The translations under genes were made by a program, and so were the position numbers. Positions 6,684 to 59,970 of a stretch of 64,000 bases of DNA are shown in pieces. The number at the start of each line of letters is the position of its first letter. Within the stretch, counting starts at the first letter, position 1. The notes below the pieces were generated by a model. It was not told the DNA's origin and did not search any database. It was given only the letters and a program-made list of their open reading frames with translations. Source of the DNA: an uncultured Chloroflexia bacterium (GTDB lineage Bacteria > Chloroflexota > Anaerolineae > JAAEKA01); assembly GCA_963707275.1 (NCBI GenBank), contig CAVPPH010000001.1, positions 92,625 through 156,624 on the forward strand, given 5' to 3'.

Positions 6684-6778
6684 GTATTCGGTTATCAGTA
6701 ACCAGTGATCAGTAATCGGAAGCAAATCATGCTAACAAAACTGTCTACCGTACACTGTTAACTGCTTACTGACCAAGG

Positions 6779-6865
6779 CGGAGGGAGAGGGATTCGAACC
6801 CCCGGTGACATTGCTGCCACAGCTGTTTTCAAGACAGCCGCCATAGTCCACTCGGCCATCCCTCC
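6779..6865 (-). tRNA. tRNA-Ser (anticodon UGA)
   Basis: Acceptor GGAGGGA/TCCCTCC, D arm GCC-GAGTGGACTAT-GGC, anticodon stem GCTGT/ACAGC with loop CTTGAAA, long variable arm and a TTCGAAT T loop. Confidence 0.85.
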
Positions 6866-6968
6866 GGGGCGCGTTTCCTGTCCCTCAAGACTGATGCATT
6901 GTAGCATAGGGCGCGTTTTCAGTCAAAGCACAAACCAGTGTGCGCACGCCGCTGCGCTGCCCGCACCT

Positions 6969-7073
6969 GCTCGTACTCTTTCTCATACTCGTACTCTTCC
7001 TCGTACTCGTACTCGAATCCGTGACAGATCTCCGAGGAGAACGAGAACGAGTAGGAGTATGAGGAAGAGTACG
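6969..7073. repeat. inverted arrays of CTCGTA-type hexamer repeats forming a long hairpin directly after the serS stop
   Basis: The left arm is CTCGTA CTCTTT CTCATA CTCGTA CTCTTC CTCGTA CTCGTA. The right arm is its approximate reverse complement (..GAGTAGGAGTATGAGGAAGAGTACG). The outer ~25 bp pair with 2 mismatches. Confidence 0.7.
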
Positions 7074-7074
7074 C

Positions 7075-8356
7075 TCAGCGTATCATATCCACGCCGCCCA
7101 TGTACGGGCGCAGCACCTCAGGCACGACGACGCTGCCGTCGGCCTGCTGGTACGTCTCCAGGACCGCGATCACGACGCGCGGCAGGGCCAGGCCCGATCC
7201 GTTCAGCGTGTAGACGTGGCGTGGCTTTGCACCCTCCTCCGGGCGGTAACGGATATTGGCGCGGCGCGCCTGGAAGTCGGTGAAGAGCGAGCACGAGCTG
7301 ACCTCCAGCCACTCCTGCACACCGGGCGCCCACATCTCCAGGTCATACCTTGGCGGCCGCCACAAAGCTCAGGTCGCCGGTACACATCTGCACCACACGG
7401 TAGGGTATTTCCAGCAGGCGGCAGATTTCTTCGGCGTCGGCGATCAGCGAGTCCAGCTCGGCCTCTCCCTGCTCCGGCTCGACGAACTTCACCATTTCCA
7501 CCTTGTCGAACTGGTGGCCGCGCTTGATGCCGCGTACATCGCTGGCCGGCCGACATGCTGCTCGCGTCGAAAGCAGGGCGTGTAGGCCACATGCTTGATC
7601 GGCAAGCTGCCCGGCGGCAGGATCTCGTCGCGGTAGAGGTTGGTAACCGGCACCTCAGCCGTCGGGATCAGCCACAGGTCGTCCTCGATGTCGCGGTACA
7701 GCGTCTCGGCGAATTTCGGCAGGCTGCCGGTGCCGAACAGACACTCTTCCCGCACCACGAAGGGCACGTAGACTTCATCGTAGCCCTGCTCCGATGTGCA
7801 CGTCCAGCATCCAGGTGATCAGCGCTCGTTGCAGGCGCGCGCCGAGCCCCTTCAGCACGTAGAAGCGGCTGCCCGACAGCTTGACGCCGCGCTCGAAGTC
7901 GATGATGCCCAGCGCCTCGCCCAGTTCCCAGTGCGGCCGCGGCTCGAAGTCGAAGCTGCGCCGCGCACCTTCGGTGCGCACGACAACGTTTTCGCTGTCG
8001 TCCTTGCCGACTGGTACGCTGGCTAGCGGCAGGTTGGGAATGCGGCTCATCGCGTCGAACAACTCCTGGTCGATGATACGCAGCCGGTCGTCCAGAACCT
8101 TGATCTCTTCGCCGACGCCGCCCATCTCCGACTTCAGCATCTCAGCTTCCTCGCGCTGGCCGTCGCGCATGAGCTGGCCGATCCGCTTGCTTTCAGCGTT
8201 GCGACGGGCCTTCAACTCCTCGACCTGTGTCAGCACTTGCCGGCGCTCTTCGTCCAGCGCCAGCGCCTGGTCTACCGGCGCCTCGCTGTCTTGCAGCGCC
8301 GCCATCTGTTGCCTGACGAATTCAGGTGTCTCGCGGATTATCTTGATATCGAGCAT
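7075..8356 (-). pseudogene. serS: seryl-tRNA synthetase, at least 3 frameshifts (near 7770, 7555 and 7365)
   Basis: Fragments 7775..8356 (N-terminal coiled coil, MLDIKIIRETPEF...), 7489..7767 (..[29 protein letters not shown]) and 7075..7365 (..[21 protein letters not shown]..) are collinear with class II SerS. The middle motif-2/3 part is readable in the third frame. Confidence 0.9.
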
Positions 8357-8465
8357 GTCGGTGCCTCCTGCTTGCTGTTGCTTATTGCGTACAGCGTATT
8401 GCTTGGCGGCGACCTGCTAGCTAAAGCAGATGCCTTGCCTTCCGAATACACAATACGCAATACGA

Positions 8466-56942: not shown

Positions 56943-56954
56943 TTCAGGAGCCCT

Positions 56955-58509
56955 ATGTACATCGGCGACACCCTCGGACGACGCGAGATCTACAGCCCAG
57001 ACAAGCTGGCGATCATCGACGCGGGCAAGCAGCCTGAGCTGCGGCTGACCTGGCGCGAGTGGAACCGGCGCGTCAACCGGCTGGCCAACTGGCTGCGCGA
57101 CGTGGCGGGTGTTGGCAAGGGCGACCGCGTCGCGATCCTGGCGCGCGACGGCATCGAACACCTGGACCTGCTTTACGCCTGCGGCAAGCTGGGCGCGATC
57201 CACACGCCGCTCAACTGGCGGCTGCACCCGCGCGAGCTGGCCGGCCTGATCGAACTGACGACACCCAAGGCGCTGCTCTTCGGCGATGACTTCCGCGACT
57301 CTGTGGCGCAGATTCAGTTGACCATTCACCAACTCACCAATTCCCCAATTAACCATTACCTGCACCTCGACGGCCGAGGTCTTCCCTGCAGCCAGGACTA
57401 CCAATCTACCCTGGACCAGTCTGCCGATCTGCCCGTCACCTGCGAGACGCTGACCGAGGAGGACATCGCCTGCCTGCTCTTCACCGGCGGCACCACCGGC
57501 CTGCCCAAAGGCGCGCAGATCAGCCATCGCCAGATCTGCTGGAACGTGCTCAACACCGTGATCCACGACCTGACCCACGACGACATCTACCTGTGCGTCT
57601 TTCCGCTGTTCCACGCCGGCGGGCTGTTCGCCTACATGTCGTCGCAGGTCGTCTTCGGCAACACCAGCGTGCTGACGCGCCAGTTCGACCCGGCCCAGGT
57701 GCTGGAGCTGATCGAACGCGAGCGGGTGACGGTCTTTGCCGCCGTGCCGACCATGTACCAGATGCTGACCACAGGCGCCCAACTGGGCGACGGCCGACCT
57801 GAGCAGCCTGCGCTTCTGCACCAGCGGCGGCGCGCCGCTGCCGGTGCCGCTGGTCGAACAGTACACGCATGAGAAGGGCATTCGCTTCAAGCAGGGCTTC
57901 GGCATGACCGAGTACGGCCCCGGCCTGTTCGCCCTGCCGCCCGAGGATGCCATCCGCAAGGCGGGCAGCATCGGCCGGCCCAACTTCTTCGTCGACGTAC
58001 GCGTGGTGGACGACGACAACCGGCCGCTGGGACCAAACCAGGTGGGCGAGCTGGTGCTGAAAGGCCCCAGCGGGTCCTCCGGCTACTGGCAGAACCCGCA
58101 GGCGTCGGCCGCGGTCATCGACGACGAGGGCTGGTTCCACACCGGCGACCTGGTGTACCACGACGACGAGTGGTACTTCTACGTCGTCGATCGCAAGAAG
58201 GACATGTTCATCTCCGGCGGCGAGAACGTCTACCCGGCCGAGATCGAGCAGGTGCTCTACCGCCATCCGGCGGTGCACATGTGCGCGGTGATCGGCGTGC
58301 CTGATCCGAAATGGGGCGAGGTCGGGCTGGCGTGCGTGGTGCTGAAGCCGGGCACGACCGCCACCGAGGACGAGCTGATCGCGCACATGCAGGCCAACCT
58401 GGCACGCTACAAGGTGCCAAAGCGCGTCGAGTTCATGCCCGAACTGCCGATCTCGGCGGCCGGCAAGATTCTGAAACGTGAGCTGCGCGACCAGTACGTG
58501 GAAGGGTAG
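56955..58509 (+). pseudogene. AMP-dependent acyl-CoA synthetase/ligase (second copy), one frameshift near 57790
   Basis: FTGGTTGLPKG (A3), ..GFGMTE.., ..TGDLVYHDDEWYFYVVDRKKDMFISGGENVYPAEIE.. and ..YKVPKRVEFM..LP.SAAGKILKREL... Confidence 0.85.
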
Positions 58510-58511
58510 AA

Positions 58512-58577
58512 CAGAGACGAAAAAGGGAAACAAGGGAAAAGAGGGAAATCGGAGCGTTTCCCGGCTGTTTTCGTCCT
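58512..58577. repeat. purine-rich AAGGGAA-type repeats closed into a hairpin
   Basis: gacgaaaaagggaaacaagggaaaagagggaaatcggagcgtttcccggctgttttcgtc. The outer arms are gacgaaaa / ttttcgtc. The motif family is the same as at 8771-8840. Confidence 0.6.
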
Positions 58578-58588
58578 GATAAGGATGC

Positions 58589-59861
58589 ATGACTATGACC
58601 CAAAGAAAACTCGGCCGCGGCGTGGCAGTCGTCGGGGCCGGCATGAGCCAGTTTGGAACGTTTCCCGAGAAGGCCACGCGCGATCTGTTCGTCGAGGCCT
58701 TTCGCGAGCTGCGCGGCATCCGTGGACAAAGGACTGGACCCGCGCGACATCGAGGCGCTGTTCATCGGCAACTACAGCAGCGACCTGTTTGAGCATCAGG
58801 GCCACACGGCGCCGATCATGGCTGATTGGGTCGGGCTGACACCGCGGCCGGCGGTGCGTATCGAGGACGCCTGCGCCAGCAGCGGCGTGGCGCTGCGGCA
58901 GGGCATCATGGCGGTCGCGTCAGGGCTGCACGACGTGGTGCTGGTCGGCGGCATCGAGAAGATGAGCAACCTGCCGACGGCCGAGGTCACCGACACGCTG
59001 GCAACGGCGGGAGATGTGCTCTACGAAATACCGGCCGGCTTCACCTTCCCCGGCTTCTACGCCGCGATCGCCATCGGCCTACATGGCGCGCTACGGCGCG
59101 ACGCCCGAGGCGCTCCTTCGGGTCGGCATCAAGAACCATGAGAACGGTGCGCTGAACAGCAAGGCGCAGTTCAACGTCTCCATCGGCGGCATCATGCAGG
59201 CGCCGCCAGGCCAGCGCCGGCAAAAAAGGGCCGTCCGGTGCCGCAGTGGTCCGACGAGATGGCGTTCCTGCAGGACGACGTGTACAACCCGATGATCGCC
59301 TGGCCGCTGCGGCTGTTCGACTGCTCGCCCATCACCGACGGGGCGGCGGCGCTGCTGCTGGTATCCGAGGAGATCGCCGCCAACTTCAGCGACACGCCCA
59401 TCGCGATCATCGGCACCGGCCAGGCCAGTGACCGGGCGCTGCCCAACCGTCCCGATCTGACCAGCCTGGGCGCGGCGCGCCATGCCAGCCAGCAGGCCTA
59501 CCAGATGGCCGGCGTGACGCCGCAGGACATCAAGATCGCCGAGGTGCACGATTGCTTCACCATCGCCGAGATCGTCGCGACCGAGGATCTGGGGTTCTTC
59601 GAGCCGGGCCAGGGCTACGTGGCCGCCGAGGAAGGGCTGACGGCGCGCAACGGGCTGCGGCCGGTCAACACGTCGGGCGGGCTGAAGTCGAAGGGCCACC
59701 CGGTCGGCGCATCGGGCGCGGCGCAGGTGATCGAGGTCTGGAAGCAGATGCGCGGCGAAGCCGGCCAGCGCCAGGTCGATCGCGACGTGGACATCGCCCT
59801 GACCCACAACGTCGGCGGCACCGGGCAGACCTGTGTGGTGCACATTTTTGAGCGGCGGTAG
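58589..59861 (+). pseudogene. thiolase-like protein of the SCP-x / DUF35-associated type, at least 3 frameshifts
   Basis: ..VAVVGAGMSQFG.., ..IEDACASSGVALRQG.. (Cys), ..FDCSPITDGAAALLL.., ..EVHDCFTIAE.. (His) and ..NTSGGLKSKGHPVGASG.. are collinear across ORFs 58589.., 58653.., 59014.. and 59238..59861. Confidence 0.8.
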
Positions 59862-59970
59862 TCGGTGATCAGTAACCAGTTACCAGTAACCAGTAATCAG
59901 TGAACAGTTGATGCGTCACAGATCACAGATCACAGATCACTGACAACTGATCACTGACAACTGATCACCG
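59862..59970. repeat. long array of CAGT-type heptamers, CACAGAT x3, then the inverted ACTGA-type arm
   Basis: gtgatcagt aaccagt taccagt aaccagt aatcagt gaacagt .. cacagat cacagat cacagat cactgac aactgat cactgac aactgat cacc. The two halves are mutually complementary. Confidence 0.75.

Follow-up and report, generated by a model that had tools for sequence, protein, structure and literature searches.

Heptamer-repeat hairpins in operon spacers of a Caldilineales-like Chloroflexota include two intervening-sequence-like elements with four-helix-bundle genes

The repeats found in the spacers of the window (the whole 64,000-nt stretch of DNA that was analysed) are heptameric simple-sequence-repeat hairpins, a few of them with units of 6, 8 or 9 nt. 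Usually an array is followed by its inverse, and the arm that is G-rich or of CAGT type mostly comes first; E2 is reversed. Two elements, E11 and E13, are complete intervening-sequence-like elements inside protein-coding operons and have the architecture of the intervening sequences (IVSs) of 23S rRNA. The host is a Caldilineales-like Chloroflexota. With moderate confidence, we read the whole set as heptamer-repeat hairpins, two of them IVS-like, whose stems would be cut in the transcript by RNase III and whose arrays would change by slippage. The other thirteen elements are listed below (TRF, Tandem Repeats Finder; z, fold against shuffles; L numbers, compared loci; arrays carry no strand).

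6688-6775, E1: NNNCAGT and ACTGNNN arrays forming a hairpin between two tRNA-Ser genes (6589-6683 and 6777-6865); TRF period 7 at 6694-6717; RNA fold z -2.8; L001 and L002 have a related array at the corresponding position.
6967-7078, E2: CTCGTA-type array (period 6/18) and its inverse, a hairpin with 42-nt arms (inverted repeat, 83% complementary) after the serS stop and before a tRNA promoter-like site (6926-6898); TRF period 6 at 6970-7015; -62.8 kcal/mol, z -6.2; missing from syntenic L001.
8378-8470, E3: CGTATTG / CAATACG inverted arrays forming a hairpin between the T-box terminator (8495-8474; T-box 8486-8731) and the serS start codon; TRF period 7 at 8445-8469, inverted repeats, z -4.9; the site in L001 has 22 nt only.
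8784-8913, E4: purine-rich AAGGRAA-type array (period 8-9, TRF 8788-8842) and pyrimidine-rich inverse (inverted repeat, arms 71% complementary), between an ftsW/rodA-like stop and the T-box promoter-like site; weak fold, z -1.3; missing from L001.
18908-18989, E5: GTTGCRG array, then CCCTACR array, in one spacer; TRF period 7 at 18966-18989, self-match detector; no hairpin, z -0.15.
24351-24412, E6: hairpin with 26-nt arms (inverted repeat, 88% complementary) in a beta-oxidation operon spacer; 7-nt periodicity weak; z -9.3.
26559-26650, E7: degenerate CAGT / ACTG inverted arrays forming a hairpin 3' of a thiolase gene; z -2.6.
28169-28206, E8: single array of the G-rich GGGGCGTA type, reverse-complementary to the E5 family; TRF period 7 at 28178-28194, self-match detector; no fold, z +0.3.
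47305-47341, E9: single GTTGCAG array of 4 copies; TRF period 7 at 47312-47340; z -2.8; missing from L081.
47453-47527, E10: hairpin of ~30 bp with CCGCGGAT / ATCCGCGG motifs, no tandem array; -47.1 kcal/mol, z -7.5; missing from L081.
52009-52090, E12: CGTATTG / TACGCAA-type arrays between an AMP-ligase stop and a KAS III start; TRF period 7 at 52062-52089; weak fold, z -0.5; kept with changes in L081.
58512-58577, E14: purine-rich AAGGGAA-type array and short inverse; TRF period 8-9 at 58519-58548; z -1.2; unrelated TTGGTAG / CTACCAA arrays in the same spacer of L081.
59862-59970, E15: six NNNCAGT and seven ACAG/ACTG units between a thiolase-like stop (TAG) and the RBS of a ChsH2-like gene, a hairpin with 46-nt arms folding as 4-bp CAGU:ACUG helices with 3x3 loops between; TRF period 7 at 59870-59909 and 59916-59968, inverted repeats, z -4.0; kept in L081 with a 14-nt difference.

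A self-match detector found 9 period-7 arrays in the window where 0.47 were expected from 30 dinucleotide shuffles, and 6 against 0 at a stricter setting. All nine fall at least partly within non-coding DNA of low coding potential, which makes up 19% of the window. The spacer repeats reported in the preliminary description are thus real, except that 24357-24406 (z -9.3) and 47453-47527 (z -7.5) are strong hairpins and not tandem arrays; three others (18908-18933, 26559-26650 and 49985-50028) are degenerate repeats below the TRF threshold. The statement that nearly every intergenic spacer is built in this way was too broad: real spacers number roughly 35-40, and about 15 have such an element, about 10 of these as an inverted pair, with none in the lower-GC stretch at 33-44 kb. 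The idea of a separate heptamer for every locus holds only in part: families recur within the window and RATCAGT, AAGGGAA and GGGYGTA are also found in other phyla. An assembly artefact was rejected, because the arrays also occur in L081, an independent relative, and in metagenome contigs assembled from short reads.

Inverted pairing was confirmed by an inverted-repeat search for E2, E3, E4, E6 and E15 (6967-7078, 8378-8470, 8784-8913, 24351-24412 and 59858-59970) and by folding for E1, E7, E11 and E13 (6685-6778, 26555-26655, 49975-50485 and 56325-56950). Ten of the 15 elements gave stems with z of -2.5 to -9.3 and arms of 23-46 nt, a length that would suffice for RNase III. The remaining five (8771-8918, 18900-18995, 28160-28215, 52005-52095 and 58505-58585) folded no better than shuffles, and three elements are single arrays with no inverted partner; the earlier view of inverted, folding pairs holds for about two thirds of the set. 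At the CAGT stems of the window, non-core unit positions are often mismatched. Poor pairing in the metagenome consensus is confined to the one variable position of each unit (~31% Watson-Crick, calculated from unit base frequencies). Arm pairing had no advantage in the sense over the antisense strand (-62.8 vs -61.1 kcal/mol, p = 0.16), a result that does not demonstrate RNA-level selection, and action at the DNA level, as a cruciform or as protein sites, fits equally well.

The elements lie directly 3' of stop codons, as described earlier, and what comes next is a ribosome-binding site, a promoter or a tRNA. Two of the supposed spacers hold four-helix-bundle genes that had been missed. In both widely spaced array pairs (49985-50474 and 56331-56942) the arrays flank a four-helix-bundle gene of the 23S_rRNA_IVP/S23p type, and in minimum-energy folds of E11 and E13 the terminal arrays pair as a closing stem of ~35 bp. 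Their parts are as follows.

49985-50028, E11 5' arm: GGTGAAT-type array directly 3' of the TGA stop of an SDR gene; pairs with 50437-50474 in the minimum-energy fold; also in L162-L165.
50063-50437, plus strand, E11 cargo: four-helix-bundle gene (23S_rRNA_IVP / TIGR02436, HMM match), frameshifted in this assembly; hand-joined frames match PF05635 at 2.3e-12; 80% identity to the intact 120-aa protein P0121.
50437-50474, E11 3' arm: ATTCACC array; TRF period 7 at 50438-50468, 4.3 copies, 92%.
56331-56378, E13 5' arm: NNNCAGT array of five units, the first of which contains the TAA stop codon of the hydrolase gene; TRF period 7 at 56333-56359, 3.9 copies, 95%; pairs with 56897-56942; CAGT cores kept and other positions changed in L081.
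56425-56916, plus strand, E13 cargo: intact gene for a four-helix-bundle protein of 163 aa; PF05635 4.8e-31, PF22296, TIGR02436 4.1e-28, below the Avd cutoff; PDB relatives 2rld and 2gsc, each deposited with five chains; 95% identity to P0001 of a Caldilineales MAG.
56897-56942, E13 3' arm: ACTGNNN array, six to seven units long, which overlaps the 3' end of the four-helix-bundle ORF and stops 12 nt before the AMP-ligase ATG; TRF period 7, 6.6 copies, fold, L081 alignment.

The 23S rRNA intervening sequences of Coxiella and Leptospira carry an S23p ORF, which in the Coxiella IVS is accompanied by GACAGAT heptamer repeats, the first of them being the site of RNase III cleavage (PMC4990558). In Azospirillum lipoferum, a true 23S rRNA IVS by Rfam LSU match has GGACAGA-type arrays, a four-helix-bundle ORF and inverse arrays (z -7.9). 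E11 and E13 share with the IVSs of these three organisms a long closing stem, complementary heptamer-bearing termini, a four-helix-bundle (PF05635) ORF in the loop and a total length of 430-620 nt. Their host sites differ, being mRNA operon spacers (SDR to AMP-ligase and hydrolase to AMP-ligase) and not 23S rRNA helix 25/45; excision of E11 and E13 by RNase III is putative.

To cover the protein clade of the window's four-helix bundle, 72 metagenome loci (68 non-redundant) were collected. CAGT arrays lie upstream and ACTG arrays downstream in 48 of the 68 and the reverse in none; 45 loci have at least three tandem CAGT units upstream and at least three ACTG units downstream. Array density is 4.15/kb beside the four-helix-bundle ORF and 0.21/kb elsewhere. 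Among loci of cultured organisms, 11 of 14 have inverted arrays, the Azospirillum 23S IVS being one of them, with the G-rich arm upstream in 11 of 11, and in cyanobacteria too the purine-rich and GGGYGTA families flank four-helix-bundle genes. Four-helix-bundle genes across phyla are thus flanked by such arrays with fixed polarity.

The repeats belong to a known class that includes cyanobacterial STRR, TAACTGA repeats and the inverted GGGAATC pairs of Xanthomonas. The suggested likeness to STRR was borne out: the TAACTGA repeat already described from Beggiatoaceae, Cyanobacteria and Bacteroidetes (PMC4679880) is the same as the CAGT family seen here, and cyanobacteria also have arrays of the purine-rich and GGGYGTA types. 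Xanthomonas GGGAATC and Nostoc GGGGAYT are also heptamer repeats, Xanthomonas having 70-75 convergent inverted pairs (PMC4692102). Common features are 7-nt tandem units, several families per genome, an intergenic location near stop or start codons and a copy number that varies between relatives. In contrast to the repeats of those two papers, most elements here are inverted pairs. Neither PMC4679880 (in which Chloroflex* occurs 0 times) nor PMC4692102 lists a Chloroflexota host or mentions a link to four-helix-bundle genes or IVS architecture.

Comparison with relatives gave a mixed picture, some arrays being conserved with unit-level changes, some absent and one spacer carrying an unrelated heptamer pair. 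As judged from these alignments, close relatives have gained and lost elements, changed their length by whole units and even exchanged one for another, a fast turnover. Near-identical loci L084, L086 and L088 differ in array copy number. Relatives without several of the elements keep intact operons, so that those elements are dispensable. It is possible, though doubtful, that the arrays are neutral or selfish by-products of slippage of 7-nt units, with the inverse made by hairpin-templated strand switching, harmless in spacers and without a role in RNA processing. The highly variable copy number and fast turnover, the lack of visible damage in relatives without elements, the single arrays and non-folding elements and the absence of strand asymmetry are consistent with this, as is the report that in many bacteria no other long simple-sequence repeat is as common as the heptamer (Mrazek 2007, as cited in PMC4679880). 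However, fixed polarity (48 to 0; G-rich arm upstream in 11/11), few heptamer families that are the same across phyla, conserved CAGT cores amid varying unit positions, a close, 20-fold association with a single protein family and exact placement at stop codons and ribosome-binding sites argue against neutrality.

HutP and TRAP bind periodic triplets, and the units could likewise be RNA, ssDNA or dsDNA sites bound by an oligomeric protein, for which the pentameric four-helix-bundle protein is a candidate. Each unit has a conserved core of 4-6 nt with 1-3 free positions, polarity relative to the ORF is fixed, and the five chains of 2rld and 2gsc agree with the description of X. campestris S23p as a homopentameric toroid (PMC4990558). 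Heptamer family and four-helix-bundle clade also go together: GCAGGGG-type arrays are shared by proteins with at least 76% identity, and those below 50% have other units, but co-inheritance explains this equally well. Since unit number runs from 0 to 23 (median 4) with none preferred, and the majority of arrays, in the window as in other phyla, lack a neighbouring four-helix-bundle gene, protein binding is an unlikely explanation.

Rather unlikely, too, is a MITE-like mobile DNA in which the arrays are terminal inverted repeats, a transposase acts in trans from elsewhere and the four-helix-bundle gene is a passenger. The 500-nt element 49980-50478, with ends CCTGA / CCTCA, is cleanly present or absent relative to L081, where the alignment has a clean gap of ~500 nt in place of the whole of E11; elements of one clade occur in many different gene contexts, and different elements occupy the same spacer in two relatives (E14 site). 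Yet the direct repeat has mismatches and cannot be made out clearly in L163-L165, no transposase lies beside any element in the window, and the E11 gap is by parsimony better read as loss in L081, because more distant relatives carry E11 at the same junction. REP/BIME, ERIC and Neisseria Correia elements are, like those here, intergenic, co-transcribed, hairpin-forming repeats, and Correia elements are RNase III targets in mRNA. Those families consist of near-identical full-length copies with defined ends, some with known transposases, whereas copies here share the short unit motif only, differ in length and have no common full-length sequence.

Intrinsic terminators or attenuators, also proposed earlier, are very improbable: stems do follow stop codons, the inner hairpin 58543-58562 fits the terminator pattern and L046 arrays bracket a terminator-like hairpin, but that inner hairpin is the only such match, no T-tract lies 3' of the stems, most elements sit inside tightly packed operons directly 5' of the next ribosome-binding site, E3 is downstream of a real T-box terminator and E1 lies between two tRNA genes.

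Processing by RNase III is a reasonable reading by analogy with the Coxiella 23S IVS and the H. influenzae hmw 5'-UTR. In the latter a heptamer array of hypervariable copy number, tied to adhesin phase variation, is the arm of a hairpin cut by RNase III (PMC12721329). There too the array is one arm of a long imperfect mRNA hairpin; hmw is a single locus with a G-rich non-repeat as right arm, whereas here many loci in housekeeping and metabolic operons have arrays as both arms. The window itself contains no RNase III gene. Because they lie between a stop codon and the next RBS, promoter or tRNA, most elements would be co-transcribed with their neighbours, and the arms would form long imperfect double-stranded stems in the transcript. 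RNase III cleavage of these stems, the most likely action, would split cistrons or tRNAs from one another, set the four-helix-bundle cistron free or destroy it, and alter the stability of flanking mRNA, and the arrays would grow and shrink through replication slippage. Arrays around four-helix-bundle genes tie together two puzzling features of bacterial genomes.

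Period-7 arrays were recovered by Tandem Repeats Finder at eleven of the places claimed in the preliminary description, together with a period-6 array (6970-7015) and purine-rich arrays of period 8-9 (8788-8842 and 58519-58548). A self-match detector found nine period-7 arrays, against 0.47 in 30 dinucleotide shuffles, and at a stricter setting six against none. All nine fall in the 19% of the window that has low coding potential by a frame-independent mask (noisy across the low-GC stretch), and the proposed restriction to non-coding DNA is borne out. The mask was used instead of ORF calls because many genes are frameshifted, which makes crude GC3 and codon-usage gene calls unreliable in this window. 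The one array within coding sequence (57324-57355; short-period, ATTCACC/TTAACCA kind) is located in an AMP-ligase gene. Its counterpart in the AMP-ligase coding sequence of L081, the syntenic contig of a Caldilineales MAG (10894-10930), has five clean 7-nt units.

At least three head-to-tail 7-nt units are present at about 11 loci, which places the arrays in the heptameric SSR class, as the suggested likeness to cyanobacterial STRR heptamers implied. The elements at 24351-24412 and 47453-47527 fall short of this and are hairpins, not tandem arrays; the periods at 6967-7078, 8784-8913 and 58512-58577 are 6 or 8-9. Unit families recur: CAGT (NNNCAGT, inverse ACTGNNN) is seen at five loci and GTTGCAG, GGGCGTA, CGTATTG and AAGGGAA at two each. 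The loci therefore do not each have a heptamer of their own, as had been supposed. Nor is nearly every spacer built of repeats; of the 35-40 or so real spacers, elements occupy about 15, none of them in 33-44 kb. That stretch (33000-44000) has more than ten spacers, zero heptamer arrays and a lower GC (52-60% vs ~63%; 62% for the whole window), and may be recently acquired DNA. Two perfect palindromes with 1-nt loops, at 1408-1448 (20-nt arms, between convergent genes) and 53108-53142 (17-nt arms), are unrelated to the heptamer families.

Inverted pairing was seen both by repeat search and by folding. The elements can form stem arms of 23-46 nt, and 10 of the 15 fold better than shuffles (z -2.5 to -9.3); for the other five folding was not significant, so that the claimed stems hold for two thirds of the elements. 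Rfam gave zero known RNA families at the elements, its matches in the window being limited to a T-box leader and tRNAs. Thus the repeat observation was upheld in substance by Tandem Repeats Finder, the self-match detector, the inverted-repeat search and folding, although several points had been overstated.

Array starts are positioned at or immediately past stop codons, and the arrays end shortly upstream of the next ribosome-binding site or start codon. Such placement was as described at 56331, where the TAA stop forms part of the first repeat unit, and at 59859 and 49977, where TAG and TGA respectively stand immediately ahead of the arrays. The serS region holds four elements, each at its own site between genes or signals:

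Repeat elements and T-box leader of the serS region
8784-8913: element flanked by the stop of the ftsW-like gene and the promoter-like site of the T-box
8486-8731, minus strand: T-box leader (Rfam); the window also has three tRNA genes
8378-8470: 93-nt heptamer hairpin separating the serS start codon from the T-box terminator; the related locus L001 has only 22 nt there
6967-7078: element between the serS stop and a tRNA promoter-like site
6688-6775: element between two tRNA-Ser genes

The T-box leader controls serS; its promoter-like site (8775-8747) is strong, and its terminator is at 8495-8474. The T/U tract that follows the GC-rich stem of an intrinsic terminator is absent at the elements (none of the four in the serS region has one), the sole match to the pattern being an inner hairpin at 58543-58562. 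The elements are therefore not intrinsic terminators, and this option of the preliminary description was rejected.

Two pairs of arrays with arms 400-500 nt apart enclose a small gene each, which had been missed earlier. The ORF at 56425-56916 encodes a 163-aa protein that matches 23S_rRNA_IVP (PF05635, 4.8e-31) and TIGR02436 'four helix bundle protein'. Its solved relatives (2rld, 2gsc) have five chains per deposition, and the S23p of X. campestris has been described as a homopentamer (PMC4990558). The second gene, at 50063-50437, is a frameshifted four-helix-bundle gene; its hand-joined frames match PF05635 at 2.3e-12, and the joined protein is 80% identical to an intact 120-aa relative, P0121. 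Minimum-energy folding of 56325-56950 and 49975-50485 pairs the terminal arrays, which is predicted to give a closing stem of ~35 bp around the ORF. The DGR accessory protein Avd was rejected as an identity for the 163-aa protein, as its NF033474 score of 48 bits is below the cutoff of 80. No reverse transcriptase was found next to either ORF, where SDR, hydrolase and AMP-ligase genes are present, or in the gene calls of the syntenic L081.

The architecture of the two elements was compared with that of the intervening sequences (IVSs) of 23S rRNA. Complementary termini with a long closing stem, here from predicted folds, and an S23p/PF05635 ORF in the loop are common to both. In Coxiella the IVS carries an S23p ORF and tandem GACAGAT heptamers, its ends are inverted repeats, and RNase III cuts it at the first repeat (PMC4990558). 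A bona fide IVS within LSU rRNA (Rfam) on Azospirillum lipoferum 4B plasmid AZO_p2 (L173, 14098-15030) carries an unannotated four-helix-bundle ORF and a stem of GGACAGA-type arrays and their inverse (fold z -7.9). Unlike IVSs, whose insertion site is helix 25 or 45 of 23S rRNA, the window elements adjoin protein-coding or tRNA genes, and Rfam found no rRNA in the window. By this analogy the two ORF-carrying elements, having the structural features of IVSs without the defining rRNA host site, would be IVS-like but not rRNA IVSs.

To address how general the association of gene and arrays is, a metagenome scan was carried out with the window four-helix-bundle protein and returned 80 loci at 61-73% identity. 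Arrays were counted on the 72 with enough flank. At least three tandem NNNCAGT units were present upstream in 49 of these, at least three ACTGNNN downstream in 51 and both in 45; the consensus units are RATCAGT and ACTGATY. Among 68 non-redundant loci, 48 had the outer polarity CAGT upstream and ACTG downstream, and none the reverse. Within 250 nt of the ORF the arrays reach a density of 4.15 per kb; the remainder of those contigs has 0.21 per kb. Gene neighbours vary among locus groups, and the array-gene unit therefore occupies many contexts. Relatives of the 50063-50437 protein are found at the same SDR/AMP-ligase junction as in the window, with GGTGAAT / ATTCACC arrays.

The same arrangement was seen on plasmids of cultured organisms (Nostoc, Tolypothrix, Leptolyngbya, Calothrix, Geminocystis, Anabaena sp. 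90, an Aphanizomenonaceae strain, Gemmatirosa and Azospirillum). Of 14 four-helix-bundle loci there, 11 are flanked by inverted short-period arrays, and in each of the 11 it is the G-rich arm that stands upstream. AAGGGAA (Geminocystis) and GGGTGTA (Calothrix) are among the units; both families are seen in the window too, as arrays without an ORF. GCAGGGG-type units are common to proteins of at least 76% identity, and other units go with proteins below 50%. Two four-helix-bundle genes are located inside CRISPR-cas operons: on Anabaena sp. 90 pANA02 (L171) between cas6 and cas4, flanked by GGTGACA / TGTCACC arrays, and on Pseudanabaena galeata pPg_04 (L174) immediately after cas2.

A profile search of 80 CcmF loci of other phyla gave one further four-helix-bundle gene (L049), flanked by a plain inverted repeat; with two narrow clades as the source of the profile, sensitivity was limited. 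Inverted heptamer pairs are abundant in several of these loci (Terriglobia L020; Gemmatimonadales L046, L026 and L078). On this count most arrays are ORF-less, and such arrays are far commoner than the gene. Pairs with units of their own are found at L046 7380-7504, L020 16861-16938 and 17956-18064, and L078 100-201; in L046 a terminator-like hairpin and its T-run lie between the arrays.

An exact look-up with one window protein gave no match. The nearest available relatives of the window are L081 (~87% nt identity, syntenic with 47.1-64 kb) and L001 and L002, an Anaerolineae and a Chloroflexota MAG whose proteins are 77% identical to the window CcmF. The contig L081 belongs to the MAG of P0001, a protein 95% identical to the window four-helix-bundle protein. 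Comparison with relatives, as had been proposed, gave a mixed outcome. L001 lacks three hairpins (6967-7078, 8378-8470 and 8784-8913) and retains the CAGT array that separates the tRNAs. L081 conserves 52009-52090, 56331-56942 and 59862-59970, keeping the cores while other unit positions and unit number differ, and lacks 47305-47341 and 47453-47527. In the spacer 58510-58600 it has unrelated TTGGTAG / CTACCAA arrays, and it has additional CAGT/ACTG hairpins of its own. Unit number also differs greatly among the near-identical metagenome loci L084, L086 and L088. As independent assemblies carry the arrays, an assembly artefact is ruled out.

The entire element 49980-50478 is missing from L081, where the stop codon of the SDR gene and the following start codon overlap. 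Its CCTGA / CCTCA flanks could be a 5-bp target duplication or could mark a deletion between short repeats, and no clear direct repeat was seen in the comparison loci L163-L165. Since more distant relatives carry the element, it appears to have been lost in L081. Further differences concern genes. Opposite window 60397-60430, L081 (14012-17269) has ~3.2 kb extra, with ECH, hydrolase and AMP-binding genes and a CAGT/ACTG hairpin at 15605-15740. A CopG-antitoxin-like gene lies on the opposite strand of L081 (1717-1980), in the spacer matching window 48946-49217, and adjoins a CGGT/CAGT array (L081 1610-1647). The window ORFs of serS, two thiolases, SDR and AMP-ligase are broken by frameshifts into 2-4 pieces each (7075-8356, 26585-27844, 49218-49944, 56955-58509, 58589-59861), reflecting either an error-prone (perhaps long-read) assembly or genuine pseudogenes; AMP-binding genes of L081 are likewise split.

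The analysis establishes how the elements are built, that they are confined to non-coding DNA and can form stems, that their polarity is fixed, that they are linked to four-helix-bundle genes and that they turn over rapidly. Co-transcribed stems probably serve as RNase III substrates, at which polycistronic or tRNA precursors would be cut and the four-helix-bundle cistron released. This reading is an analogy, drawn from the excision of IVSs (PMC4990558) and the hmw 5'-UTR of H. influenzae, where a heptamer array forms a hairpin arm cut by RNase III and RNase III is required even for repeat hypervariability (PMC12721329). Arm duplexes were equally stable in sense and antisense (-62.8 vs -61.1 kcal/mol, p = 0.16), so this test gave no sign of selection at the RNA level. 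Pairing at the variable unit position was no better than random (~31% Watson-Crick, 16% G.U vs 14% A.C, by hand arithmetic from metagenome unit base frequencies). A purely neutral origin of the arrays by slippage is a possible but less likely explanation. That proteins bind the periodic cores seems doubtful; five units per array, one for each subunit of a pentamer, are unsupported, unit number ranging from 0 to 23. MITE-like mobility is more doubtful still: MITE and REP elements occur as many near-identical full-length copies, whereas same-family copies in the window share the unit only.

Beyond RNase III processing of the stems, four-helix-bundle genes with polar inverted heptamer arrays might constitute one pan-bacterial, IVS-like selfish class, which would colonise CRISPR-cas and tRNA operons and operon spacers as well as 23S rRNA. 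Heptamer hairpins that lack an ORF (STRR, TAACTGA, GGGAATC and others), which are far more numerous, would then be its non-autonomous derivatives, and the pentameric protein would recognise or propagate its own heptamer family. We consider this proposal speculative and rather unlikely as a whole.

The window arrays join STRR, the TAACTGA repeats (PMC4679880) and the Xanthomonas GGGAATC repeats in the heptameric SSR class; 70-75 convergent inverted GGGAATC pairs adjoining stop codons have already been described (PMC4692102). The initial observation is thus a further instance of a known, unexplained kind, and Chloroflexota is listed in neither study. In the literature searched, no report linked S23p/four-helix-bundle genes outside rRNA to systematic polar inverted heptamer arrays; other reports may exist. 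For annotation, array 'spacers' can conceal small genes and break short-read assemblies. Heptamer repeats (STRR and kin) and S23p-bearing rRNA intervening sequences have each been puzzling for decades. Both share a build of G-rich array, four-helix-bundle ORF and inverse array in fixed polarity, found in Chloroflexota, Cyanobacteria, Gemmatimonadota and an Alphaproteobacterium, with further loci on metagenome contigs; its sites include mRNA operons besides 23S rRNA. If the link is true, the two puzzles would merge into the questions of what the four-helix-bundle protein does with array hairpins and whether RNase III cuts them, and would point to a widespread mode of punctuation of polycistronic transcripts.
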